The position numbers and the translations under genes were made by a program. From IMG/VR virus record IMGVR_UViG_3300045988_003495: a stretch of 64,000 bases of DNA; one strand, 5' to 3'. Positions 31,591-63,882 of the stretch are shown here, piece after piece. How positions within the stretch are numbered: the first letter of the stretch is position 1; every line of letters starts with the position of its first letter. The DNA is from a virus (lineage: Duplodnaviria; Heunggongvirae; Uroviricota; Caudoviricetes). A model generated the notes under the pieces. That model did no database searches, was not told where the DNA came from, and worked only from the letters and a program-made list of their open reading frames with translations.

Positions 31591-32472
31591 ATGAAAACAT
31601 CTATCCGTGTTACAGTTCATTCACCAACTAAAGGGACTCATGAAGAAGAGTTTAACATCATCCAATTTCCTTCTGGTGAGATTGGTGGACACTTTTCGCC
31701 AGAGTTTGTTGATTTCACTGCTTATGCAGCATCATCCATCAACAATGTGATTATGATTGTAAAAGGTTATGACAAGGACACATTGTTTGCTGTGGCACTT
31801 GCTAAAGAAGCAATTGATGATTTAATTCCTCATGATTATGCTTTAAAGACTGTCATCTTTTACTACTTACCAAATGCACGATATGACCGTCACATGTTTA
31901 AAGGCGACGCAGCAGCTTTAAAGGTTTTTGCTAAACAGGTAAATGCAATGGGATTTGGTGCAGTCTGTGCAGTTGACCCTCACAGTTACGTTCCAGATAA
32001 CCTGTTTAACTGCTTCCAGAGTATTCCTCAAAAGGAGATTGCAGTCCACTATGCAAATGACCCACTGGTTGATTACTTAGTAGCCCCAGATGCAGGTGCT
32101 GCTAAGAAGGTTGCAGAGACCGCTAAAGAGGCGGATAAACCATATATCACAATGTCTAAGGTGCGTAACCTTAAGACTGGTGAAATTACTGGTATGCGAA
32201 TCCTTGATGATGTTGATTTGACAGATAAAACCGTCATGATTCTGGATGATATCTGTGATGGTGGTCGAACCTTCATAGAAGCAGCTAGACATCTTCGTGA
32301 AGCAGGTGCAAAACGTGTGGAACTCTATGTAACACATGGTATCTTCTCTAAAGATGTTGAAAACCTTCTTGACAATGGCATTGACCACATCTACACTACA
32401 AACTCTTTAGGGGAAGCTAAAGACCGTGGCTTAACACATTATGGTCAAGTTACTGTAGCAAATTTGGATTAG
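31591..32472 (+). CDS. ribose-phosphate pyrophosphokinase-like enzyme (Prs-like; candidate ADPR-PP synthetase of NARP1)
   Basis: 293 aa; PRPP-binding-type motif VMILDDICDGGRTFIEAARHLREAGA; partnered with NAMPT-like gene. Confidence 0.65.
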   Translation: MKTSIRVTVHSPTKGTHEEEFNIIQFPSGEIGGHFSPEFVDFTAYAASSINNVIMIVKGYDKDTLFAVALAKEAIDDLIPHDYALKTVIFYYLPNARYDRHMFKGDAAALKVFAKQVNAMGFGAVCAVDPHSYVPDNLFNCFQSIPQKEIAVHYANDPLVDYLVAPDAGAAKKVAETAKEADKPYITMSKVRNLKTGEITGMRILDDVDLTDKTVMILDDICDGGRTFIEAARHLREAGAKRVELYVTHGIFSKDVENLLDNGIDHIYTTNSLGEAKDRGLTHYGQVTVANLD

Positions 32473-32480
32473 GTATTAAA

Positions 32481-32972
32481 ATGGATAAGGGTTACTTCGA
32501 AAAATACCTAATATACGAACCGGAGACAGGTTTACTAATTTGGAAAGTAACCCTTTGCAATACCGCTATTGCTGGTAATGTTGCTGGCACAAGGTCTAAG
32601 AAGGGTTATATCCAAGTCCAGATAAATAAGAAGAGGTACTATGCACATAATATTGCATGGATTATGTCTGGAGGTGAGATACCAAGTGGATATGAGATAG
32701 ACCACATAGACCTTGATAAATCTAATAATAAGTTGGAGAATTTAAGACTTAGCACAAAGTCACAAAATCAGAGGAATAGGGGTATATACAAGAATAATAA
32801 AACTGGTGTGAAGGGTGTAAGTTTTTGTAAACAAACAGGTCTTTACAAAGCAAGAGTCATGCTTTACCATAAAGAATACTTTTGTGGAAGATTTAAAACG
32901 GTAGAAGAAGCAAAAGAAGCTGTAATTAAAAAGCGAATAGAACTTCATGGTGAGTTTGCAAGACATAACTAA
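32481..32972 (+). CDS. HNH homing endonuclease with AP2-type domain
   Basis: YEPETGLLIWK, HNH core IDHIDLDKSNNKLENLRLSTKSQN, AP2-like GRFKTVEEAKEAV; inserted between the two NAD-salvage genes. Confidence 0.7.
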   Translation: MDKGYFEKYLIYEPETGLLIWKVTLCNTAIAGNVAGTRSKKGYIQVQINKKRYYAHNIAWIMSGGEIPSGYEIDHIDLDKSNNKLENLRLSTKSQNQRNRGIYKNNKTGVKGVSFCKQTGLYKARVMLYHKEYFCGRFKTVEEAKEAVIKKRIELHGEFARHN

Positions 32973-32990
32973 GAGAGAGAGAGATAAAAT

Positions 32991-34772
32991 ATGAGTAAGT
33001 CACTTTACGCAGTACCAGCAGGTCTTAATGCAGATGCTTACAAGGCATCACATATATATCAGTATCCAGATGCTACGCAATATCTTATGTTGAACCTGAC
33101 ACCACGTAGCGACAAATGGTTTAACAGTCCATTAGCAATTGATGGTGTAGTCGCTTTTGGTATTCAACGTTTCGTTAAAGATTACTTGATAGACCACTGG
33201 AACGCCACTTTCTTTGAACGTGATAAAAAAGAAGCCATTGATGAAATCTTAGAAGTCATGAATGGTGTTCTGGGTAAAGATGCTATCGGTCGAGAGCATT
33301 GGGAAGCACTTCACGACTTAGGTTATCTACCAGTTGAAGTATACGCTGTAGAAGAAGGCACAGTTGTCCCTATGCGTGTCCCAATGATTGTCTTCCAGAA
33401 CACTGTTTCAGGTTTCCATTGGGTAGCAGGTTATCTGGAAGATGCTTTCTCTGCTGAGATTTGGAAGGCTTGCACTATTGCAACTATTGCATTGCATTAC
33501 AAACGCATCTGTAAGAAGTGGGCTGACCTTACTTGTGACAACGACTTGCATCTGCCCTATCAGTGCCATGACTTTGCTATGCGTGGTATGTCAGGCTTTA
33601 CTGATGACGCATTTAATGCTGTAGGTCACTTAACCAGCTTTAAAGGAACTGACAGCTTCCCTGCTGTATACACGGCTAAACGCATCTATGGGCAGTCTTA
33701 CCCAATCTCTGATATTGGTAGTTCTGTACCAGCCACTGAACACTCTGTAATGTGTGCAAACATTGCTTGGGAAGGTGGTAATGAATTGATTGAAGATGAA
33801 AGACGCTTTAAAGGTGAGTTACAAACCTTCCGTCGTTTTTTAACAGAAACTTACCCAACTGGTATTGCAAGTATTGTTTCAGATACTTATAACTTCTGGA
33901 GAACTGTGTCAGAAATCTTACCAGCACTCCGTAAAGAAATTATGGAACGTGATGGCAAACTGGTAATTCGCCCTGACTCTGGAGACCCTGTACATATTGT
34001 CACAGGTTATAAAGCAATCCACTTAGAATGTGCTAAGAAGGCTTATTATGAGCACCTTAGTAAGCTGGAAGCCAGCGACACAATGTTGAATGCTGTTCTG
34101 AATATGAAGCTTGAAAACATCAGCTATGGTATTGCTGGATGGCTACTGTCAGAAGGCTACGAAATGGTTGTTGACAGAGAAGACTTTGAAGTTGCTGATA
34201 CAGTGATGTTGAAGAACGCTTATATGGTTGGTTCTGCAAACGTTGTAACACGCCCTGTAGCAGAGATTGATGGGGCTATTAAGACCCTGTATAACATCTT
34301 CGGAGGGACTATCAACTCCAAAGGCTTTAAGGTACTGGATGAGCATATCGGGCTTATCTATGGCGACTCTATCACGCTGGAACGTGCAAACGAAATCCTG
34401 AAGCGTCTGTATGAAATGGGTTTTGCAAGCTCTAACGTAGTGTTTGGTGTAGGCTCTTACACTTACCAGTACATGACTCGTGACACCTTTGCATTTGCTG
34501 TCAAAGCAACTCTTGCAAGCATTGGTGGTAAAGAGATTATGCTTGCAAAAGACCCTAAAACAGATAGTGGTGTTAAGAAATCTGCCTTTGGTGGTGTAGC
34601 ACCTATGTGGGATGGTGATAAGCTGAAAGCTGTAGATGGCTATGGATTCCAGAGCTTTGCAGATGCACTTGAACATCCAGCTTGTGCTCTACGCTTAGTC
34701 TTTAGTGATTCTGAGCAGTATGGTTACACATCTCTTGGTGATATTCGAAATAATATTGACAAGCAGCTTTAA
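32991..34772 (+). CDS. nicotinamide phosphoribosyltransferase-like enzyme (NAMPT-like; candidate nicotinamide ADPR transferase of NARP1)
   Basis: 593 aa; overall NAMPT/NadV-like size and motifs; adjacent to Prs-like gene. Confidence 0.7.
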   Translation: MSKSLYAVPAGLNADAYKASHIYQYPDATQYLMLNLTPRSDKWFNSPLAIDGVVAFGIQRFVKDYLIDHWNATFFERDKKEAIDEILEVMNGVLGKDAIGREHWEALHDLGYLPVEVYAVEEGTVVPMRVPMIVFQNTVSGFHWVAGYLEDAFSAEIWKACTIATIALHYKRICKKWADLTCDNDLHLPYQCHDFAMRGMSGFTDDAFNAVGHLTSFKGTDSFPAVYTAKRIYGQSYPISDIGSSVPATEHSVMCANIAWEGGNELIEDERRFKGELQTFRRFLTETYPTGIASIVSDTYNFWRTVSEILPALRKEIMERDGKLVIRPDSGDPVHIVTGYKAIHLECAKKAYYEHLSKLEASDTMLNAVLNMKLENISYGIAGWLLSEGYEMVVDREDFEVADTVMLKNAYMVGSANVVTRPVAEIDGAIKTLYNIFGGTINSKGFKVLDEHIGLIYGDSITLERANEILKRLYEMGFASSNVVFGVGSYTYQYMTRDTFAFAVKATLASIGGKEIMLAKDPKTDSGVKKSAFGGVAPMWDGDKLKAVDGYGFQSFADALEHPACALRLVFSDSEQYGYTSLGDIRNNIDKQL

Positions 34773-39003: not shown

Positions 39004-39552
39004 ATGAAGAAATTGATTCTAGGTTTGTGCTTAATGTTTACAGCACACTTATCTTATGCAGTTGACTGCCCAGAGCTATCAATTAGCCAAAAAGTAAACA
39101 TGTTAAAAGCTTACCAGTATGGTGAGAACAACATGGGTAAAGGTTGGGGTATCACTCTAGCTGCTATAGCCTTACAAGAGTCAGAGTTAGGTCTGAAGGT
39201 AGAGAATAAAAAGACACATGATTATGGTATTTTCCAGAATCACTTGAAGACTGTTGTAAAGCGTAACAAAATTAGTCCTAATGTGGCTAAAAAGAAACTC
39301 TTAAAAGACTTTAACTATGCTGCGAAGGAAACTCACAAAGAGCTTGAGTTTTGGACAAAGGTGCATGGTCAGCCAAAGTCAAAGAAGACTTTACAAAAAG
39401 TTTTAGCATCATATAATGCTGGGTATTCGTACAAAATCCCTAAAGCTAAGAAATATTCTCAAGATGTCTATAACAACATGAAAGTCATTGCTCAATGTGA
39501 ATTTGCAACAAACATTTCTAAGGTAAACCATGAAAAAATTAAAAAAGTCTGA
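39004..39552 (+). CDS. secreted lytic transglycosylase (SLT domain)
   Basis: signal peptide MKKLILGLCLMFTAHLSYA; SLT-like motifs AIALQESELG, YGIFQ, AYNAG. Confidence 0.55.
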   Translation: MKKLILGLCLMFTAHLSYAVDCPELSISQKVNMLKAYQYGENNMGKGWGITLAAIALQESELGLKVENKKTHDYGIFQNHLKTVVKRNKISPNVAKKKLLKDFNYAAKETHKELEFWTKVHGQPKSKKTLQKVLASYNAGYSYKIPKAKKYSQDVYNNMKVIAQCEFATNISKVNHEKIKKV

Positions 39553-40225
39553 TGAAGTACTGTGTCATGCTTACGACTTACATCCTCATGAGTTAGGTCT
39601 TGATTCCTGTGTATGGACTCCAGAACAGTGTAGGGATTTTGAAGACACTGCAAGAGAAGTTGTATGTTCACTCGAAGAGTTCCACACATCAGAGCCAATT
39701 GTGAATGTTGTAGATAAAGAGACTGGACAAACTATAGGTGTAAGTCGTGATAGCTTAGTCATAGTCAATAAAGACCTTGTAGAAAAAGGTAACCTCATCT
39801 TAGCAGATATTGATGGTGTTCTTACAAATTTTAATCACGAAGATTGCTCAACGGAATTGACTGATGGGTCATTCTCACAGTACACTAATCTTCTTGACTC
39901 TGTAAGAGCAAAACCAACGTATGTCTTTAGTATTATTGATGCAATTGCTAATCATGCTGCCATTGGACTCTTGACAGCGAGAGGTGAATCTCAGAGAATA
40001 CCTACTGAGATGTTTTTAAGGCACAACATAGAGCATGACTACATGCTTTTTATGCGTGGTTTTGGAACTAACTCTATAAGTGCAGAAAGTTTGAAAGTGA
40101 GGATGATTCAGTCTTGCATCCTGCCTTACTTTAATATAGTATGTTTTATAGAAGACACAGAGAAGAATGTGCAGAAGGTGAACAGAATCCTTCCACACAT
40201 TAAAACCATGTTAGTTAAACATTGA
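39530..40225 (+). CDS. HAD-superfamily hydrolase domain protein
   Basis: motif I LILADIDGVLTNF (DxDG). Confidence 0.45.
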   Translation: MKKLKKSDEVLCHAYDLHPHELGLDSCVWTPEQCRDFEDTAREVVCSLEEFHTSEPIVNVVDKETGQTIGVSRDSLVIVNKDLVEKGNLILADIDGVLTNFNHEDCSTELTDGSFSQYTNLLDSVRAKPTYVFSIIDAIANHAAIGLLTARGESQRIPTEMFLRHNIEHDYMLFMRGFGTNSISAESLKVRMIQSCILPYFNIVCFIEDTEKNVQKVNRILPHIKTMLVKH

Positions 40226-40700: not shown

Positions 40701-40712
40701 GGTTAAGATACA

Positions 40713-40735
40713 GGCTCCTTCGGGAGCCTTTTTCA
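40713..40735 (+). terminator. rho-independent terminator
   Basis: aggctcc-ttcg-ggagcct followed by ttttt. Confidence 0.6.
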
Positions 40736-40752: not shown

Positions 40753-41100
40753 ATGACATTTAAAGAGTTCTGTCAAGCTACTTTCATAATTGTTTTCTTA
40801 GTTGGTGCAGGTGTCTGGGGAGGATACTCTTACAGAGACTATCAAGTTGCTGAAACTGAGCTAAATAATGAGAAACTAATAAGTGTTGCTAAAGATGCTT
40901 ATCAGGAAGGTTTAGCCACACTCAGCACCAATTACAAAAATGATTTGAAAGATGTGCTTGCTAAGAATAAGCATACAAAAGAGGTACTAACATATGAAAA
41001 AACTAAGCCAGAGTTTTATAATGTTTGTGTTACTGATAATTATGTCAGGGTGTTCAACGAACAAAGTGAACAGTACATTCAAAAACTCCCAAGTAAGTGA
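40753..41100 (+). CDS. candidate i-spanin
   Basis: N-terminal TM anchor FIIVFLVGAGVWGG then helical periplasmic part; o-spanin-like gene overlaps its 3' end in another frame. Confidence 0.45.
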   Translation: MTFKEFCQATFIIVFLVGAGVWGGYSYRDYQVAETELNNEKLISVAKDAYQEGLATLSTNYKNDLKDVLAKNKHTKEVLTYEKTKPEFYNVCVTDNYVRVFNEQSEQYIQKLPSK

Positions 41101-41263
41101 GAGTGACAAGTACACCCAAGAAGAATCACGGTATATCATCAAAGGCAACACAGGCAGCGATGTAGCAGCAGCCCTTGAGTTCTATCGTGACGGCTTTTAC
41201 CAGTGCACAATCAAAGCTAACAACCTTATTGACATGATTTTATTAGGGAATAAGCAGCAATGA
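40994..41263 (+). CDS. candidate o-spanin (outer-membrane lipoprotein)
   Basis: lipoprotein signal with lipobox IIMSGC; starts inside 40753..41100 in a different frame. Confidence 0.5.
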   Translation: MKKLSQSFIMFVLLIIMSGCSTNKVNSTFKNSQVSESDKYTQEESRYIIKGNTGSDVAAALEFYRDGFYQCTIKANNLIDMILLGNKQQ

Positions 41264-41529
41264 CAGAGAATCAAGATACTTTTTACGTAGAAGGGTACTT
41301 ACTGTTACCACGACCAAAAGAGACTTATATGCGAATTGATTTCTCACCAACCATTATGGATAATGTGATGTGCCATATCTTTATGCAAGGTGTCACAGCA
41401 CAGCTTAAACATGTTGGTAAAGAGTGCAAAATAAAGGTTGACACTCATCCAGAAATCAAAGAGAATCACTACACATGGTTCTTACCAGATTCTAAAGAAA
41501 TCTTAGCAGTTCTAAAAACGAGGAAGTAA
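41260..41529 (+). CDS. hypothetical protein
   Basis: 89-aa ORF. Confidence 0.4.
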   Translation: MTENQDTFYVEGYLLLPRPKETYMRIDFSPTIMDNVMCHIFMQGVTAQLKHVGKECKIKVDTHPEIKENHYTWFLPDSKEILAVLKTRK

Positions 41530-41531
41530 CT

Positions 41532-41855
41532 ATGCAGATTAATGGAAGAGAATTTGTAGCCGTTTACTACGAGAAGGATAAAGAGGTTGGTGTAGCACAA
41601 GTAACCTACGGCAACGGTAAGTGGTTATATGGAACAATAGCAGTAGTAGGGACAAGGAGTGATACAAAAACCTTTAAAGATTGTGTTGACCTTCTTGAAG
41701 AATCCATCCAGAATCATTGGTGTCTGATATGGATGACTGACAACGAAGTGATGGAGCGTTTCAAAAAGATTGATATCAACATTGACAGTATTGAGCATGT
41801 TGATTTATATGAACTGACCGAAAAGGTAAACTATGAAAGCTATAGAGGTAATTGA
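41532..41855 (+). CDS. hypothetical protein
   Basis: 107-aa ORF. Confidence 0.4.
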   Translation: MQINGREFVAVYYEKDKEVGVAQVTYGNGKWLYGTIAVVGTRSDTKTFKDCVDLLEESIQNHWCLIWMTDNEVMERFKKIDINIDSIEHVDLYELTEKVNYESYRGN

Positions 41856-42060
41856 CAAAGATACTGGAGAAGTCACGTCAGCATGTGTTTTCGTGAGTCA
41901 CGACACAGTGATACCATTTTACAGCCTCGACAGTTTTAGTTTTACAGGGACAACTCCAGAGGAATACTTTGAAGACCTCACCTTTGCCAGAATTTCCATA
42001 AACACATTCTATAAATGCTTCTATGATGAAGGTAAAGAATTACGAGAAACTGAACTATAA
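41833..42060 (+). CDS. hypothetical protein
   Basis: 75-aa ORF. Confidence 0.35.
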   Translation: MKAIEVIDKDTGEVTSACVFVSHDTVIPFYSLDSFSFTGTTPEEYFEDLTFARISINTFYKCFYDEGKELRETEL

Positions 42061-42072
42061 GGTATATATTAT

Positions 42073-42273
42073 ATGGCTGACTTCTGCAAAGACTGTTCTA
42101 TCGAAATGTTCGGACGTGATACAGGTGACTTAAAAGGTCTCGTCACTGAAGATGACTTTAAAGCTGGTTATGCGATTCCAGTAATCTGTGAAGGCTGTGG
42201 GTGTATCTGGGTAGACCACGAAGGGCAACGTGTAAAGCCTTCAGAAGATAAAGAATCTTGGGAGAGATGTTAA
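42073..42273 (+). CDS. zinc-ribbon protein (hypothetical)
   Basis: CKDC ... CEGCGC. Confidence 0.4.
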   Translation: MADFCKDCSIEMFGRDTGDLKGLVTEDDFKAGYAIPVICEGCGCIWVDHEGQRVKPSEDKESWERC

Positions 42274-43059
42274 ATGGGTATTGTAAAAATCATCAAAGGT
42301 GATATCTTTGACGCCTTTGATAAAGGTAAGTTTGACATCATTGGTCATGGTTGTAACTGTATGAATTTAATGGGTGCAGGTATTGCAGCAACTATTTCTA
42401 AGCGTTATCCAAAAGTGTATGATACTGACACAGAAGTTTACCTGTTTGCAGGTGGCATTCGTCACAAACCCTGTGAAAATTTACTAGGTAATTTCTCTGT
42501 AGCACGTTTAAAACAAGGCCGTATAGCTAACCTTTACACCCAACTTCATACTGGTAAAGATGCCCGATACAGTGCTTTAGAGTCATCCTTGAAACAGCTT
42601 AACAGATACTGTGAAGTTAACCAGTTGAAGAAAGTTGGTCTACCTATGATTGGTGCAGGTATCGGTGGACTTGACCCTCAAGCTGTCACAGTTATCATTA
42701 ATCAGGTGATGAAGAGTGTAGATGTTTATCTGTATGTCTATGAAGCAAAAATGTATAATGAGTTACACTCAGGTTGGAAAAACTACTGTGAACCAGAATA
42801 CTTTGCAGGTGTAGTTGTGTTCACAGATAACGCAGTTACCCTCTTCAGACGAAGAAAAGGTAAGATACATCAAAGTAACCCTCCGGTTGAAAAGATGTCT
42901 CTAAGTAACGCTCTAGTTACCCACCTGTCGAAGAGCAATCACAGAATTGCAGTAACATTTGGCAGTGATGCAGATGCTTATATCTATGCAAGAACTGATG
43001 AGGATATTGAGTTAATCCTCTCTTCACCAGAACTTACCTTCTTAGACGCAAAGAACTAA
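42274..43059 (+). CDS. macro-domain protein (ADP-ribose binding/processing)
   Basis: N-terminal GDIFDAF...DIIGHGCNCMNLMGAGIAATI resembles the macro-domain glycine-rich ADP-ribose pocket. Confidence 0.5.
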   Translation: MGIVKIIKGDIFDAFDKGKFDIIGHGCNCMNLMGAGIAATISKRYPKVYDTDTEVYLFAGGIRHKPCENLLGNFSVARLKQGRIANLYTQLHTGKDARYSALESSLKQLNRYCEVNQLKKVGLPMIGAGIGGLDPQAVTVIINQVMKSVDVYLYVYEAKMYNELHSGWKNYCEPEYFAGVVVFTDNAVTLFRRRKGKIHQSNPPVEKMSLSNALVTHLSKSNHRIAVTFGSDADAYIYARTDEDIELILSSPELTFLDAKN

Positions 43060-43107
43060 GAAACTTCGTAGTATATTCACAATAGACTAAGCCTTTCTTA
43101 TCTGGTA

Positions 43108-43326
43108 AATTTTTCAGGTAAGGAGGGCTTTTTCATTTCAGATTTGTGCAGGTAGAGTTCTGTAGAGAAATCTATAGAGAAAATTTTGAACTCCAAAGAG
43201 AAAATTCATTTTCAAACTGTGCAGGTAATCTCCAAAGGGTTTTTTCATTTTCAAAACGTGCAGAGAAAAATCAGGTCGGGCAAGAAAAATCATTTTAGAA
43301 TTGTGCAGGTAGGTGGGGGTAGGTGG
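43108..43326. repeat. array of four to five direct repeats CATTTTCA-RAWY-TGTGCAGGTA plus tandem ggtaggtggg
   Basis: copies near 43131, 43205, 43245, 43288; ggtaggtggg x2 at 43307-43326. Confidence 0.6.
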
Positions 43327-43488
43327 GACTGTCGCCATTTCTCACAAGGCTACCACATCTGAAAATAAAAGTCAACAGAAAAATTTGTAGCGGATTGAAA
43401 AATAATTCTTGATTGTAGTTCTGTTTTGTGGTAGTCGCGCGCACCCGTTTCATTACAATTTTTGCAAAAAATATTTTTAAAAATTTTC

Positions 43489-43517
43489 TTGACTCTTTGA
43501 ACTGGGTTATCTAATAT
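43489..43517 (+). promoter_or_regulatory. sigma70-type promoter (TTGACT-N17-TAATAT)
   Basis: -35 at 43489-43494, -10 at 43512-43517; upstream of first gene of the small-gene array. Confidence 0.55.
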
Positions 43518-43569
43518 TTGCATCAGACGGGGCGACAAGCTCAACAACCTTAAACTAGGAGATTCAAAA

Positions 43570-43953
43570 ATGGCATATCGTGCACCTAAATTCATCAACA
43601 AAGACAACTTTCGCAACGCACTGGAGAAGTCACTTGATGAAAATTTTAAAGGTAACATTATCGTTGTTCACGCATTCAATTTTAAGTATGATGTAAACGG
43701 GAATAGAATCAACCATTACACGGCAACCATGTTAGATGGTACACTTTCAAGTGAAAAAGCCGTACTAAATGCACTGGCAGGACGTGGAAAGGTATTAGTA
43801 AGATGTGATAAGAGACGTTATCAGGGCGGTGCATATGGTTATGATGATGCTGTTTACCATCTTGAAAATATGGGCTATCAAGTAGAAAAAGCTGGAGCAT
43901 CACAAATCATCGGCAGTGATGGTTATGTAACTATCTTCAAAATTAACAAATAA
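43570..43953 (+). CDS. hypothetical early protein
   Basis: 127 aa; RBS taggag; ends in the conserved KINK* that starts the repeat cassette. Confidence 0.45.
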   Translation: MAYRAPKFINKDNFRNALEKSLDENFKGNIIVVHAFNFKYDVNGNRINHYTATMLDGTLSSEKAVLNALAGRGKVLVRCDKRRYQGGAYGYDDAVYHLENMGYQVEKAGASQIIGSDGYVTIFKINK

Positions 43954-44039
43954 AGTACTTTACAAGGGGCTTATAGTTCGATAAAGTAAGCCCCAGATAA
44001 AGAGCTTTACTACTCAATCCTAAATTGGAGAACTTAAAA
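43954..44039 (+). repeat. intergenic cassette type I (hairpin ggggctta...taagcccc plus conserved leader and RBS)
   Basis: hairpin 43966-43994; near-identical copies at 46196-46280 and 47330-47414. Confidence 0.6.
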
Positions 44040-60783: not shown

Positions 60784-60860
60784 CTCTGTTTAGCTCAGCT
60801 TGGTAGAGCGTTCCGTTTGGGGCGGTAAGGCCGGAGGTTCAATTCCTCCAACAGAGACCA
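60784..60860 (+). tRNA. tRNA-Pro (anticodon TGG)
   Basis: acceptor ctctgtt/aacagag, D-stem gctc/gagc, T-arm ggagg-ttcaatt-cctcc, encoded CCA. Confidence 0.7.
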
Positions 60861-60867
60861 AATTAAT

Positions 60868-60945
60868 GTTCCAGTAGACAAAATGGTATAGTCACCACTC
60901 TTTCAAAGTGGATATTTGAGGGTTCAAATCCCTTCTGGAACGCCA
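60868..60945 (+). tRNA. tRNA-Glu (anticodon TTC)
   Basis: acceptor gttccag/ctggaac, anticodon stem ccact/agtgg with loop ctttcaa, T-loop ttcaaat, CCA. Confidence 0.7.
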
Positions 60946-60950
60946 GTTTT

Positions 60951-61027
60951 GACAGAAGACCAATTACAGCAAACTTAATCTTATTCATCTGAAGGTAAAT
61001 CGGACAAAGAAGAGATTTGGTCTGGTC
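60951..61027 (+). ncRNA. Y-RNA-like structured element A
   Basis: 5' motif gaCAGAAGACCaattACAGCAAac pairs with 3' motif tTTGGTCTGGt (agaccaa/ttggtct) enclosing about 55 nt. Confidence 0.45.
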
Positions 61028-61036
61028 ATTAAGAAT

Positions 61037-61113
61037 TGCGGGTATAGAGAAAGGGCGTCTCACATGTCTCATTAGCATGGTATCGGCAGGTTCGACTCCT
61101 GCACCCGCCTCCA
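61037..61113 (+). tRNA. tRNA with CAT anticodon (Met or Ile2 type)
   Basis: anticodon stem catgt/gcatg, loop ctcatta, D-stem gaga/tctc, T-arm gcagg-ttcgact-cctgc, CCA; 5' end ambiguous by 1 nt (possible 1:72 mismatch). Confidence 0.6.
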
Positions 61114-61116
61114 AAT

Positions 61117-61180
61117 TTACAGAAGACCGTATGCAGCAACAAACTACTTTTTGCGGATAAAAGAAAAAACACGGTCTGGC
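61117..61180 (+). ncRNA. Y-RNA-like structured element B
   Basis: 5' tACAGAAGACCGTatgCAGCAAcaaac pairs with 3' aacACGGTCTGGc. Confidence 0.45.
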
Positions 61181-61190
61181 AATGTATTAA

Positions 61191-61267
61191 GGTTAGGAAG
61201 CACATAAGGTATGTGCGGTCGCCTGTTAAGCGAATGGCACAGGGTTCGAATCCCTGACTAACCGCCA
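61191..61267 (+). tRNA. tRNA-Asn (anticodon GTT)
   Basis: acceptor ggttagg/actaacc, D-stem gcac/gtgc, anticodon loop ctgttaa, T-arm caggg-ttcgaat-ccctg, CCA. Confidence 0.7.
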
Positions 61268-61276
61268 AATTTAAAT

Positions 61277-61364
61277 GTGTCGTTATCCCGTAGATGGTAG
61301 CGGTGGGGACTGTAAATCCCTTGTCATTGAGACTCGGTAGGTTCGACTCCTACACGGCACACCA
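61277..61364 (+). tRNA. tRNA-Tyr (anticodon GTA), long variable arm
   Basis: acceptor gtgtcgt/acggcac, anticodon stem gggga/tccct, loop ctgtaaa, 15-nt variable arm, T-arm gtagg-ttcgact-cctac, CCA. Confidence 0.7.
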
Positions 61365-61386
61365 ACACTTAGCGAGATACTTAGTT

Positions 61387-61788
61387 ATGAGAGATGAAGT
61401 ATACAAATCACAACTTGGTATGAGTTTGGGAACTGCACAAAACAGACTAGTAAAAGATTTGCTATTCGATTTTATATGTAAGACAAATCAAAATAGATGT
61501 TTTCAGTGCGGAAAAGAAATGACTAGGGATGATTTCTCTATCGAGCATAAGACTCCGTGGAGACACAAAGATAATGCAAAAGAACTTTTCTTTTCACTAG
61601 ATAACATTTCTTATAGCCACCTGCGTTGCAACATGAAAGCAGCCAGACCAGCACAGATTTATGATAGAAAGCCTAAGCCAATTAAACACGGCACTGCACA
61701 CAGCTACTCTAAAGGTTGCAGATGTGATGAGTGTAGGCTGGCTAAGAATGCTGAGGGTAGGAAGCACTATAACCCCAGAAAGGCGTAG
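61387..61788 (+). CDS. HNH endonuclease inside the tRNA cluster
   Basis: CFQCGKEMTRDDFSIEHKTPW ... CRCDEC; ORF-track start 61294 overlaps tRNA-Tyr, so ATG at 61387 preferred. Confidence 0.55.
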   Translation: MRDEVYKSQLGMSLGTAQNRLVKDLLFDFICKTNQNRCFQCGKEMTRDDFSIEHKTPWRHKDNAKELFFSLDNISYSHLRCNMKAARPAQIYDRKPKPIKHGTAHSYSKGCRCDECRLAKNAEGRKHYNPRKA

Positions 61789-61820
61789 GAAGAAGTATTT
61801 AAGAAATGGCACATAGTTTT

Positions 61821-61896
61821 GGGGTATTAGTTTAGACGGTGAAAATACGGGATTATCTCTCCTGAGCCGCGAGTTCGATTCTCACATACCTCGCCA
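61821..61896 (+). tRNA. tRNA of undetermined identity (anticodon loop ttatctc, nominal anticodon ATC)
   Basis: good acceptor ggggtat/atacctc, D-stem gttt/aaat, T-arm gcgag-ttcgatt-ctcac, CCA; anticodon loop has pyrimidine at position 37 and A at 34. Confidence 0.5.
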
Positions 61897-61954
61897 ATTT
61901 TGAGAGGGCTATTTAGCCCCTCCCTTAAAGAGTTCTTACGAGTATCCTTTAAAG

Positions 61955-62034
61955 GAGCAGAAGACCAAATACAGCAAGTTACTTAAAATTTCAAGCCAAT
62001 TCAATTTTGAAAAATTTAAAACTTGGTCTGGCTC
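61955..62034 (+). ncRNA. Y-RNA-like structured element C
   Basis: 5' gCAGAAGACCaaatACAGCAAg pairs with 3' aaCTTGGTCTGGc. Confidence 0.45.
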
Positions 62035-62042
62035 AACAAATT

Positions 62043-62177
62043 TACAGAAGACCGTTTACAGCAAAACTTAAACAATCTATTTCTCGGTAAAGAAAAGGCG
62101 AAGGTTCGATTCCTTCACTCGGCAGATGTCGAGTTGGTGTAATGGTAGCACTTAAGATGATAAACAACGGTCTGGTA
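62043..62177 (+). ncRNA. Y-RNA-like element D with embedded circularly permuted tRNA-like module (YrlA-like)
   Basis: terminal helix agaccgtt (62047-54) with aacggtct (62165-72); inside: T-arm gaagg-ttcgatt-ccttc (62100-62116), acceptor-like helix actcggc-agat-gtcgagt closed by 4-nt loop (62117-62134), D-arm gtgt-aatggta-gcac (62137-62151); no anticodon arm. Confidence 0.55.
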
Positions 62178-62278
62178 ATTATCTTTGCAGTAGCTTATGT
62201 GGCTAATTATGTCGTCCCATGAGTGCCGATGAATTTCCTTAGCATGATTCTAGATTAGCTTAGTAGGAAATGACTCTA

Positions 62279-62299
62279 CAGACCCTTTAGCAAGGTCTG
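62279..62299 (+). ncRNA. minimal hairpin sharing the CAGACC...GCAA...GGTCTG motif
   Basis: cagacc-ctttagcaa-ggtctg. Confidence 0.3.
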
Positions 62300-62326
62300 C
62301 GTAGGTTACTGCAAAGGCAATTTAAT

Positions 62327-62402
62327 GGAAGTGTAGCAGAATGGTGATGCGGCAGACTTTTAATCTGACAGGCGATGGGTTCGAATCCCTCCACTTCTAC
62401 CA
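62327..62402 (+). tRNA. tRNA-Lys (anticodon TTT), tentative
   Basis: acceptor ggaagtg/cacttct, anticodon stem caga/tctg, loop cttttaa, T-loop ttcgaat, CCA; T-stem and D-stem weak. Confidence 0.55.
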
Positions 62403-62406
62403 AAAT

Positions 62407-62483
62407 GGTTCAGTCGCAGATAAGGTAATGCAGGGGTCTCATAAGCCCTATGAATGTGGGTTCGATTCCCATCTGAACCTCCA
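62407..62483 (+). tRNA. tRNA with CAT anticodon (Met/Ile2/initiator type)
   Basis: acceptor ggttcag/ctgaacc, anticodon stem ggggt/gccct, loop ctcataa, T-arm gtggg-ttcgatt-cccat, CCA. Confidence 0.65.
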
Positions 62484-62485
62484 AT

Positions 62486-62560
62486 TGTGGGTTAGCATAA
62501 ATGGTAATGCAAACGGCTGATAACCGTTAGAAGAGGGTTCGATACCCTCACCTACAACCA
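62486..62560 (+). tRNA. tRNA-Ile (anticodon GAT)
   Basis: acceptor tgtgggt/acctaca, D-stem gcat/atgc, anticodon stem aacgg/ccgtt, loop ctgataa, T-arm gaggg-ttcgata-ccctc, CCA. Confidence 0.8.
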
Positions 62561-62575
62561 ATTTCAATAAAGTTG

Positions 62576-62604
62576 TTGACATTGATACGTGACTACTTTA
62601 TAGT
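62576..62604 (+). promoter_or_regulatory. internal sigma70-type promoter (TTGACA-N17-TATAGT)
   Basis: -35 at 62576-62581, -10 at 62599-62604. Confidence 0.55.
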
Positions 62605-62808
62605 AACCTTAGTTTTCGTTGCGTAGCGTCTATTTTGCAAATTTAAAATAAATGCAAACGACAATGTTTTTCTGGCAGTAGCTTGATAGGCTAAACACCA
62701 GTGAGGTCTTCCAATCCCTCATCAAAGAATTTGGCGTACTAGCCCACGGTATGATTAATAAGGTGGGCATCTTTAAGGGCTTTCTAAGAGAGTCTTTAAA
62801 GATAATTA

Positions 62809-62890
62809 CGGGGCGTATCTCAGCTGTCTTCTAAACAGCCGTTAACCGAGTAAGTGGAGTATGCGGGTTCGAGTCCTGCCGCCTCGACCA
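62809..62890 (+). tRNA. tRNA-like gene, possibly tRNA-Arg (anticodon TCT), atypical
   Basis: canonical anticodon arm gctgt-cttctaa-acagc, T-arm gcggg-ttcgagt-cctgc, acceptor cggggcg/cgcctcg, CCA; only 7 nt where D-arm should be, and about 23 nt between anticodon arm and T-arm. Confidence 0.35.
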
Positions 62891-63033
62891 ATTTAGTTAG
62901 CAGATTACTTAGACGACCTAAGCGGGTCTTCCTGTAGGGAGGTGGTCTGTATCTCATGTTTTCCAGAACATGTAAATAATCTGAGAAGGGGCTTTACAGT
63001 GTTGCGAAAATACGGTAAGCTTCGAATTATAGT

Positions 63034-63116
63034 GTGGGACGATGTTAAGACTCTAAGGCATGAGCAACGGCCTCCAAAACCGTTTCAAAGGGGTTCAACT
63101 CCTCCGTCCCATGCCA
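63034..63116 (+). tRNA. tRNA-like gene, possibly tRNA-Trp (anticodon CCA), atypical length
   Basis: acceptor gtgggac/gtcccat, anticodon stem aacgg/ccgtt with loop containing cca, T-loop ttcaact, CCA; D-region 6 nt too long. Confidence 0.35.
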
Positions 63117-63129
63117 AAGTCTTATTAGG

Positions 63130-63217
63130 GGTAGGTAGCGGCTAATGGCAGCCAAACAGTCTTGAAAACTGTTGCCACTGTAGAGATACGGTGAGGGTTC
63201 GACTCCTTTACTTACCG
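63130..63217 (+). tRNA. tRNA-Ser (anticodon TGA), class II, CCA not encoded
   Basis: acceptor ggtaggt/acttacc, anticodon stem acagt/actgt, loop cttgaaa, 20-nt variable arm, T-arm gaggg-ttcgact-ccttt. Confidence 0.6.
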
Positions 63218-63375
63218 CCTAATAAGATTTAAAGCCAAGCTTCATTCGGATGTTGCTTTGGTATCCCTCGTGTATTGTCGTACACGCACAGTAAAGCACC
63301 TAGTAGGTGTCACGGAGAAGAGATAATATCAAGCTCTCCAAAGGTTCTAGTCACCGGATTAAACAAGACTATGCA

Positions 63376-63396
63376 AAGACCAAATTAGGTCTTTTT
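63376..63396 (+). terminator. hairpin plus T-run inside the tRNA cluster
   Basis: aagacc-aaatta-ggtctt followed by ttt. Confidence 0.4.
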
Positions 63397-63475
63397 AGAG
63401 GGCTTCTAAGGTTATTACAGCTTGTTGTGGAACCTTGTTGCTTAGGTTCTTAGAAGTTCTCTAAAAAGATTTAAT

Positions 63476-63553
63476 GGGAGATTGACGGTAATTGGTAAAC
63501 CTACCATCCTTAGAAGTTGGTGTTTGAGGGTTCGAATCCCTTGTCTCCTACCA
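63476..63553 (+). tRNA. tRNA-like gene, anticodon arm ambiguous (possibly TAG)
   Basis: acceptor gggagat/gtctcct, T-arm gaggg-ttcgaat-ccctt, CCA; D and anticodon arms pair poorly. Confidence 0.35.
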
Positions 63554-63560
63554 AATTAAT

Positions 63561-63636
63561 GCAGGTGTAGCAAAATGGTTATGCGGCTGACTCTTAATCA
63601 GTAAGACGATGGGTTCAATTCCCTCCACCTGTACCA
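63561..63636 (+). tRNA. tRNA-Lys-like paralog (anticodon CTT), tentative
   Basis: acceptor gcaggtg/cacctgt, anticodon stem gctga/tcagt, loop ctcttaa, T-loop ttcaatt, CCA; close paralog of 62327..62402. Confidence 0.5.
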
Positions 63637-63642
63637 AACATT

Positions 63643-63718
63643 GGGGATGTAGTTTACATGGTTAAAACATAAGTTTTGCAAACTTAAGTACAGGGTTCAA
63701 TTCCCTGCTTCTCCACCA
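63643..63718 (+). tRNA. tRNA-Ala (anticodon TGC)
   Basis: G3:U70 pair in acceptor (ggggatg/cttctcc), D-stem gttt/aaac, anticodon stem taagt/actta, loop tttgcaa, T-arm caggg-ttcaatt-ccctg, CCA. Confidence 0.8.
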
Positions 63719-63724
63719 ATTAGT

Positions 63725-63799
63725 GCATCCATAGTTTAAACGGGAAAATTACAGTCTTCCAAACTGAGGTTGAGGGTTCGATTCCCTCTGGATGCTCCA
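63725..63799 (+). tRNA. tRNA-Gly (anticodon TCC)
   Basis: acceptor gcatcca/tggatgc, anticodon loop cttccaa, T-arm gaggg-ttcgatt-ccctc, CCA. Confidence 0.75.
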
Positions 63800-63806
63800 A
63801 ATTAAT

Positions 63807-63882
63807 GCTCCTATCGTATAATTGGCTATTACGGTTGCCTTGTAAGCAACTTATCAGGGTTCGAATCCTTGTGGGAGCACCA
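63807..63882 (+). tRNA. tRNA-Thr (anticodon TGT)
   Basis: acceptor gctccta/tgggagc, anticodon stem gttgc/gcaac, loop cttgtaa, T-arm caggg-ttcgaat-ccttg, CCA. Confidence 0.8.

Follow-up and report, generated by a model that had tools for sequence, protein, structure and literature searches.

NARP1, a two-enzyme pathway that returns ADP-ribose (ADPR) to NAD+, was discovered in genes 79-80 of phage Bas63 (JohannRWettstein), and its function was shown by experiment. A Macro protein named Adpp is found within 15% of NARP1 operons, and purified Adpp from Vibrio phage Gary turns ADPR-1''-phosphate (ADPR-1''-P) into ADPR, which lets NARP1 overcome the NAD+-phosphorolysing defense aRES (10.64898/2026.01.28.702374). 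Gary Adpp and the macro protein of Pseudomonas phage VCM are both listed in Table S1 of that survey, whose authors mutated H24 of the Gary protein (10.64898/2026.01.28.702374). Another described phage macrodomain is T4 Tk.4, named AdfM in the HIDEN-SEQ preprint, where its deletion sensitizes T4 to DarTG2 in Escherichia coli (10.1101/2025.11.20.689424). The name AdfM is also carried by PhiKZ gp104, which strips DarT2 ADP-ribose from DNA in vitro, with residues N23/K78 corresponding to N22/K80 of TaqDarG2 (PMC13309987). Here, we analyze a 64,000-nucleotide stretch of a tailed-phage genome (IMG/VR record IMGVR_UViG_3300045988_003495, hereafter the window), which is a segment of a Felixounavirus (FelixO1-like myovirus) genome. 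Its gene at positions 42274-43059, the macro gene, encodes a macrodomain joined to a lineage-specific C-terminal domain (C-domain) in a genome that also carries NARP1, and we tentatively read its product as an Adpp equivalent located away from the pathway that it would feed. The features that carry the argument are as follows, with all coordinates given in the window.

42274..43059, plus strand: macro gene, coding sequence of 261 amino acids (aa) for a two-domain macrodomain protein (ATG-started open reading frame [ORF], PHROG 335, orthologues, ratio of nonsynonymous to synonymous substitution rates [dN/dS] below 1)
42274..42744, plus strand: macrodomain, residues 1-157, Gln-type member of the TARG1/DarG/Poa1p class, phage Tk.4/Adpp family (Pfam, PDB sequence matches, AlphaFold2 [AF2], Foldseek, family alignment)
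42745..43056, plus strand: lineage-specific C-domain, residues 158-261 (104 aa), predicted as a linker helix, six to seven beta-strands, and a terminal helix (AF2 model)
31591..32472, plus strand: Adps, a PRPP-synthetase-like ADPR pyrophosphokinase, NARP1 enzyme 1 (Pfam PF00156/PF14572, orthologue of bas63_0079)
32991..34772, plus strand: Namat, a Nampt-like nicotinamide ADPR transferase, NARP1 enzyme 2 (Pfam PF04095/PF18127, tblastn, orthologue of bas63_0080)

By both sequence and predicted structure, residues 1-157 form a true macrodomain with an intact conserved pocket. The Pfam family Macro (PF01661) matches residues 25-141 with 32.2 bits (gathering cutoff, 22; E 1.1e-7), and the best sequence matches in PDB are human TARG1/OARD1 (E ~1e-6), the DarG macrodomains 5m3i (E 3e-5) and 5m31 (E 7e-5), and, over part of its length, Poa1p. 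An AF2 model of the full protein, with 24 homologues as input, has a predicted local distance difference test score (pLDDT) of 91.6 and a predicted template modeling score of 0.89. The model shows the three-layer alpha/beta/alpha macro fold, with 244 Foldseek matches in PDB at E values up to 1e-3, and its nearest solved structures are the TARG1, TaqDarG, and MtbDarG macrodomains and Poa1p (E 1e-10 to 8e-10; target-normalized template modeling [TM] scores, 0.75 to 0.87). A previous sequence-only reading had proposed a macrodomain ADP-ribose pocket at the N terminus from motifs that are indeed present (GDIFDAF at residues 9-15 and DIIGHGCNCMNLMGAGIAATI at residues 21-41), and Pfam, the PDB sequence matches, and Foldseek all agree with it. 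The profile search against macro families that it put forward as a check returned PF01661 above the gathering cutoff, and no unrelated fold was assigned. Its approximately 100 extra C-terminal residues correspond to the 104-aa C-domain, which is a separately folded, beta-rich domain in the AF2 model.

Two glycine-rich loops, HGCNCxNxMGAGIA and PMIGAGIGGLD, are seen in the macrodomain, and G34, G36, A38, G127, G129, and G132 are invariant in 24 two-domain homologues. Across the wider phage family, H25, N28, G36, A38, G72, Q90, P124, and G127 are invariant in all 36 aligned members. H25 aligns with H24 of Gary Adpp and with H23 of Poa1p, the reference ADPR-1''-P phosphatase (an H23A mutant is named in PDB), while N28 coincides with N23 of PhiKZ AdfM in a direct alignment. 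The sequence match to Poa1p is limited to residues 5-55, and Poa1p lacks a C-terminal domain. TARG1 is the top solved-structure match by sequence (E 1e-6) and by fold (TM score, 0.85), yet neither residue of its K84/D125 dyad is conserved here, and it too lacks a C-terminal domain. DarG2 and PhiKZ AdfM share the TARG1/DarG-class macro fold and the catalytic Asn with our protein, and DarG2 likewise combines a macrodomain with a second domain, but both carry Lys where ours has Gln, and no darT adjoins our gene. The residue in question is Q90, which occupies the catalytic-Lys position of TARG1 (K84), TaqDarG2 (K80), and PhiKZ AdfM (K78). Gln at this position is also found in the ALC1-like subclass of SCO6735 and Bt_1257, and SCO6735 is a very efficient thymidine-ADPr DNA hydrolase whose Gln85, equivalent to our Q90, is needed for activity, as Q85A inactivates it (PMC9411070). 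Our model has Bt_1257 (2fg1, 2afc) as one of its close matches by fold, whereas SCO6735 (5e3b) shows weak sequence similarity (E 0.14), and both are bacterial chromosomal proteins. The missing catalytic Lys was considered as an argument against de-ADP-ribosylation of DNA and dropped, since SCO6735 employs Gln at the same site.

Sequence comparison places the macrodomain in one phage family (PHROG 335 and its relatives) together with Tk.4 and Adpp. The macro protein is 35% identical to T4 Tk.4 over residues 3-157 (82 bits, E 3e-24), 33% identical to the NARP1-adjacent macro of Pseudomonas phage VCM (E 5e-21), and 28% identical to Gary Adpp (KNV71_gp137; E 7e-15), with Tk.4 and Gary Adpp being 35% identical to each other (E 2e-23). 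In the phage database, we observe one family member per genome. Tk.4 resembles our protein in its HGCNC...YTQ...GAGIG signature, the invariant H/N/Q, its single copy per genome, and the host genus (E. coli); it differs in being a single domain of 155 aa, where ours adds the 104-aa C-domain, in the lack of NARP1 in T4, and in its anti-DarTG2 role, which has been shown genetically. Gary Adpp also has Gln at the same position and comes from a genome that encodes Adps and Namat, but it lies between these two genes, is a single-domain protein of 158 aa with the signature HQCNC...YGQ, and has a demonstrated ADPR-1''-P phosphatase activity. PhiKZ AdfM is more distant, at 25% identity and only 30 bits to our protein, and Tk.4 (L005:3926-4390, minus strand) matches PhiKZ gp104 (L010:22518-23003) with only 21 bits over 23 residues. 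Because the two are barely similar and K78 of gp104 falls on our Q90, the AdfM proteins of 2025-2026 represent different subfamilies, Tk.4 being of the Gln type and gp104 of the Lys type like DarG2.

Judging from their orthology with Bas63 genes 79-80, Adps and Namat of the window are the founding NARP1, so that the NARP1-like pair which the sequence-only reading had reported in this genome is confirmed. We consider it possible, somewhat short of an even chance, that the macro protein is an unlinked Adpp equivalent, converting ADPR-1''-P into ADPR that feeds NARP1. Counted for this reading are its homology to the validated Adpp, the invariance of H25, N28, Q90, P124, and G127, the co-residence and synteny with NARP1, and the presence of aRES in E. 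coli and Salmonella. The glycine-rich pocket would bind the ADPR moiety, and the H25/N28/Q90 constellation would cleave the group on C1'' of the distal ribose, releasing free ADPR, the exact substrate that the phage's own Adps and Namat (31591-34772) would return to NAD+. ADPR-1''-P arises when RES-domain defenses such as aRES phosphorolyse NAD+. A second possible source, as we infer, is the decay of the NARP1 intermediate ADPR-PP via ADPR-cyclic-phosphate; in Bas63 infections with active NARP1, ADPR-PP decays and ADPR-cyclic-phosphate accumulates. Accessory enzymes that channel ADPR derivatives into NARP1 have precedent in Adpp and RyDEP. The same chemistry would also clear phage DNA of the ADP-ribose that DarT2-type toxins attach to thymidine, in line with the phenotype of T4 Tk.4, and we regard a dual activity on ADPR-1''-P and DarT2-type ADP-ribose as likely and the two as not exclusive. 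The sequence-only reading had foreseen a counter-defense on several fronts, directed at both ADP-ribosylation (DarT, for example) and NAD depletion; homology to Tk.4 and Adpp supports this as a putative role of the macro protein. That reading missed the most specific possible link to NARP1, dephosphorylation of ADPR-1''-P, and could not have recognized the C-domain as a lineage-specific orphan.

The order Namat-rIIA-rIIB-HAD/PNKP-like-...-Macro is kept in all four of the two-domain contexts that we examined, down to 32% macro identity, and metagenomic relatives with this conserved order encode macro proteins only 32 to 35% identical to ours. Within Ounavirinae, Namat and the macro protein co-occur, the phage database holding 261 records with Namat and 244 with the macro protein at 60% identity or more. 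Among Escherichia-phage records, by comparison, approximately 994 have a macro homologue and 192 a Namat homologue, so the macro family as a whole is not tied to NARP1, and no NARP1 was found within 10 kb of single-domain relatives in unrelated phages.

Several observations weigh against the Adpp-like reading. The macro gene lies approximately 7.5 kb and 15 genes 3' of Namat, in a different transcription unit with at least one terminator-like hairpin between them, and thus beyond the two-gene distance that defines NARP1-AP (10.64898/2026.01.28.702374). The macro gene went uncounted in that survey because it is 15 genes away and genes were taken within two positions; no Escherichia, Salmonella, or Felix phage is listed in its Table S1 (10.64898/2026.01.28.702374). 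Approximately 800 Escherichia-phage records contain a family member without any Namat homologue, and the closest characterized relative, Tk.4, comes from T4, which has no NARP1. At the motif level, our HG.NC...YTQ is of the Tk.4 type, shared with an Acinetobacter NARP1-adjacent protein, while the Gary and Pseudomonas types read HQ.NC...YGQ. A small-molecule phosphatase, moreover, needs neither a fast-evolving extra domain nor replacement as an allele cassette, both of which are described below. In a neighbor-joining tree of 37 family members (300 bootstraps), the two-domain clade is monophyletic with 70% bootstrap support, but all deeper nodes are below 40%, and because of this, function is not assignable by tree placement. 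Finally, the searchable literature holds no experiment on the Felixounavirus or Bas63 macro protein, or on these phages against DarTG or aRES.

The likeness to Tk.4 brings in a rival explanation that we regard as nearly as likely as the Adpp-like reading and compatible with it, if still doubtful. Here, the macro protein would be an AdfM-like antitoxin mimic, in which a Gln-dependent, SCO6735-like activity removes DarT2 ADP-ribose from thymidine in single-stranded phage DNA, the C-domain binds toxin or DNA like the second domain of DarG2, and the co-residence with NARP1 is incidental. T4 Tk.4/AdfM, whose loss sensitizes T4 to DarTG2, is the best pairwise match among characterized proteins, and the FelixO1 annotation itself points to a T4 tk-vs protein. 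This evidence on Tk.4 is, however, genetic only, and the biochemically validated PhiKZ AdfM keeps K78, is only 25% identical to ours, and as gp104 is barely similar to Tk.4. The top structural neighbors are TARG1 and the DarG macrodomains, the Gln85 of SCO6735 that equals our Q90 supports efficient hydrolysis of thymidine-linked ADP-ribose (dT-ADPr) in DNA, and the combination of a macrodomain with a second domain parallels DarG2. The only NCBIfam match is also a DarG antitoxin model (NF048014, E 5e-15), with 55.5 bits against a cutoff of 250 and covering profile positions 2-151 of 338, which leaves the C-terminal, DarT-binding half without a match; no darT toxin gene is found among the immediate neighbors of the macro gene. 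The score against this model was tried as a discriminator and set aside as uninformative (Tk.4, 30 bits; Adpp, 35 bits; ours, 55 bits; TARG1, 57 bits), since it does not separate Tk.4 from Adpp. A fast-evolving C-domain and allele-cassette replacement are in keeping with an arms race against a protein partner, yet the C-domain shows no match to the C-terminal half of the DarG profile or to any solved fold, and its charge is not conserved (isoelectric point [pI], 4.6 to 9.8), which argues that it is not a generic DNA binder. Bulk charge of the macrodomain or C-domain as a hint of nucleic acid binding was likewise rejected as uninformative, given an acidic PhiKZ AdfM and this range of pI.

Regarding the Adpp-like reading, the NARP1-adjacent macros in the tree form a Gary/KIT04/phi3 cluster (94%), a Pseudomonas/PH357/RYC cluster (81%), and a solitary Acinetobacter protein, and ours nests in none of them. 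Their distribution over at least three separately supported clusters suggests an ADPR-1''-P activity that is widespread in this family or ancestral to it. Neither the tree nor the motifs, charge, or profile scores decide between ADPR-1''-P and DarT2-modified DNA as the substrate.

A further reading, in our view unlikely, is that the enzyme acts on another ADPR conjugate that serves immunity or the phage itself, erasing a modification or signal such as mono-ADP-ribosylated proteins, ADP-ribosylated RNA, the O-acetyl-ADPR of sirtuin-type defense, or the His-ADPR of type II Thoeris. The best match, TARG1/OARD1, bears the PDB names O-acetyl-ADP-ribose deacetylase 1 and terminal ADP-ribose glycohydrolase, several relatives are annotated as "O-acetyl-ADP-ribose deacetylase," and in ThsA it is macrodomains that bind His-ADPR. 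Proteins as well as DNA are substrates of SCO6735 (PMC9411070). These annotations are automatic, however, and no such role is on record for any member of the family; the genomic context points to no particular ADP-ribosyltransferase or Thoeris signal, within a window that was not searched for phage ADP-ribosyltransferases.

The C-domain is a real, selected, and fast-evolving domain under purifying selection. Within the genus, dN/dS is 0.09 to 0.26 for the C-domain and 0.02 to 0.11 for the macrodomain, and between genera it is approximately 0.55 and approximately 0.2, respectively. Only P174 and G179 are invariant within the C-domain across the 24 two-domain homologues, and its pI spans 4.6 to 9.8 among homologues. 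When 1.84 billion representative proteins were searched with a C-domain profile, only the two-domain family was recovered, the other matches being one frameshifted or split copy, one fragment, and three spurious repeat proteins. A search against solved folds returned no fold relative and no recognizable effector fold, and a PH-like identity was rejected, as the recurrent weak matches (MTMR6, SSRP1, SPT16, Exo84, pICln) were all below significance. A domain-only model of residues 158-261 gives the same topology with lower confidence (pLDDT, 70.6), which suggests that the C-domain may pack on the macrodomain.

Evidence for exchange of the gene comes from the metagenomic contig L009, which is 93 to 98% identical to window positions 41980-43500 up to the start codon, 42 to 72% identical across the ORF, and again 80 to 93% identical downstream of approximately 43350. 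Because identity drops across the ORF only and then recovers, the macro gene appears to have been replaced as an allele cassette. In L009, the macro gene is itself split by a frameshift into ORFs of 162 and 114 aa. The C-domain should be dispensable for the chemistry on ADPR-1''-P or dT-ADPr, since active homologues are approximately 155 aa long. From its evolutionary behavior, we infer that it mediates an interaction at the protein level, for example to target the protein or to bind a host factor.

Many macrodomains serve as binders alone, and the pairing of two domains recalls sensor-effector fusions such as ThsA. On this basis, the protein could be a noncatalytic reader or sponge, with the macrodomain only binding ADPR or an ADPR-derived signal and the C-domain coupling this binding to another function. 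We consider this very improbable, as the full catalytic constellation, shared with the active Adpp, does not vary in any of the 36 members, purifying selection on the macrodomain is strong (dN/dS, 0.02 to 0.11), and the C-domain has no recognizable effector fold. A bifunctional protein is a more elaborate proposal, and one that we hold to be rather unlikely in its complete form. Its macrodomain would hydrolyze both ADPR-1''-P and DarT2-type thymidine-ADP-ribose, with the ADPR recycled by NARP1, and its C-domain would directly bind and inhibit a host effector that targets ADP-ribose or NAD+, such as DarT2 or aRES, in a manner analogous, not homologous, to the second domain of DarG2.

The gene itself is well established in the genus. 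Window positions 41500-44000 are 97% identical to Felixounavirus LF110P4 and approximately 93% identical to Meda, Barry, FelixO1, and others, and the full-length macro gene is kept in approximately 200 Felixounavirus records at 89 to 99% DNA identity. Orthologues include bas63_0095 of Bas63 ("putative phosphatase") and Felix01p025 of FelixO1, whose record already mentions a likeness to a T4 "tk-vs intergenic region" protein, and PHROG 335 ("phosphatase") covers residues 1-260 (E 5e-114). Full-length conservation together with a dN/dS below 1 in both domains places this ORF far beyond chance. Around it, we observe small phage ORFs whose function is not known (PHROGs 4391, 4453, 13034, and 2210), together with a terminator and the following features.

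42260..42266, plus strand: Shine-Dalgarno-like GGGAGAG, 7 nucleotides (nt) 5' of the macro ATG (sequence reading)
42073..42273, plus strand: Cys-rich ORF of 66 aa (CxxC...CxxC...C, PHROG 2210), 5' of the macro gene (ORF list, PHROG match)
43089..43130, plus strand: intrinsic-terminator-like hairpin followed by a T-run, closing the transcription unit just 3' of the macro gene (sequence)
40712..40729, plus strand: terminator-like hairpin, separating the macro unit (40753-43059) from the rIIA/rIIB/HAD block and NARP1 (sequence)

The 66-aa Cys-rich ORF is probably a zinc ribbon. Its TAA directly abuts the macro ATG, which makes translational coupling of the two genes likely, and the pair is also present in Bas63, FelixO1, and SUSP1. 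As an obligate partner of the macro protein, however, this ORF was rejected, being adjacent in Felixounavirus and Suspvirus, displaced in contig L004, and absent in L006. Its identity is 97% in L009, although the macro allele there is only approximately 40% identical, and 70% in L004. In another contig (L002), an HNH/AP2 ORF lies immediately 5' of the macro gene; it is similar to an HNH_3/AP2 homing-endonuclease gene that in the window (32481-32972, plus strand) sits exactly between Adps and Namat, splitting the pair. In ESCO49 and Bas63, Adps and Namat are adjacent and carry no such insert. Syntenic between rIIB and the macro gene, the window also encodes a 231-aa protein (39530-40225, plus strand) whose relatives are annotated as "polynucleotide kinase." Its match to polynucleotide kinase profiles is confined to their HAD phosphatase half (residues 84-219 against positions 158-282 of 295 in phrog_505), and it has a unique N-terminal region of approximately 85 aa; as a speculation, its substrates could include ADPR species with a phosphate or cyclic phosphate.

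Past the macro terminator, the intergenic region at 43124-43311 contains four direct copies of a 28- to 34-nt unit (..TTTTCATTTTCAAA..TGTGCAG), three of them with an exact TGTGCAGGTA within approximately 170 nt. One-mismatch matches number 11 across the window, against 4.1 ± 2.0 expected, and an Rfam search of the repeat region returned nothing significant. Relatives carry indels in this region, and the Bas63 annotation places two small minus-strand ORFs there. Further along, 15 tRNA genes typical of FelixO1-like phages are located at 60784-63882 on the plus strand (Pro, Glu, Met x2, Asn, Tyr, Asp, Lys x2, Ile, Ser, Leu, Ala, Gly, and Thr), and the tRNA-Tyr call overlaps the start of a 164-aa ORF (61294-61788). 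In addition, Felixounavirus genes at 92 to 98% identity occur in MG065664, MG065668, and MG065645 ("Campylobacter phage A132/A126/A145") and in one "Staphylococcus" record, which are probably mislabeled or mixed assemblies.

While the fold and the general idea of counter-defense were already known, with the gene routinely annotated as "phosphatase" or "O-acetyl-ADP-ribose deacetylase," three aspects appear to be undescribed in the searchable literature: the two-domain architecture with its orphan C-terminal domain, the distal placement relative to NARP1 in the reference phage lineage for this pathway, and the unity of Tk.4/AdfM and Adpp as one Gln-type family distinct from PhiKZ AdfM. That one family holds both the anti-DarTG2 Tk.4 and the phosphatase Adpp raises the question of substrate promiscuity, and the C-domain, for which near-identical genomes carry alternative allele cassettes, is a candidate for a new type of protein-interaction module in phage counter-defense. 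Bas63 is genetically tractable, and assays have been published for both candidate substrates. Felixounaviruses are the reference system for NARP1 and contribute roughly 250 of the phage genomes in which it is known. If the distal macro protein is an Adpp equivalent, the published 15% of NARP1 phages with a phosphatase would be a substantial underestimate, and Felixounaviruses, which are common agents of biocontrol against Salmonella and E. coli, would be expected to withstand aRES-type defense. Should the bifunctional reading hold, T4 "AdfM" and "Adpp" would represent one family with one chemistry, and approximately 250 Ounavirinae genomes would carry a cryptic NARP1-AP.

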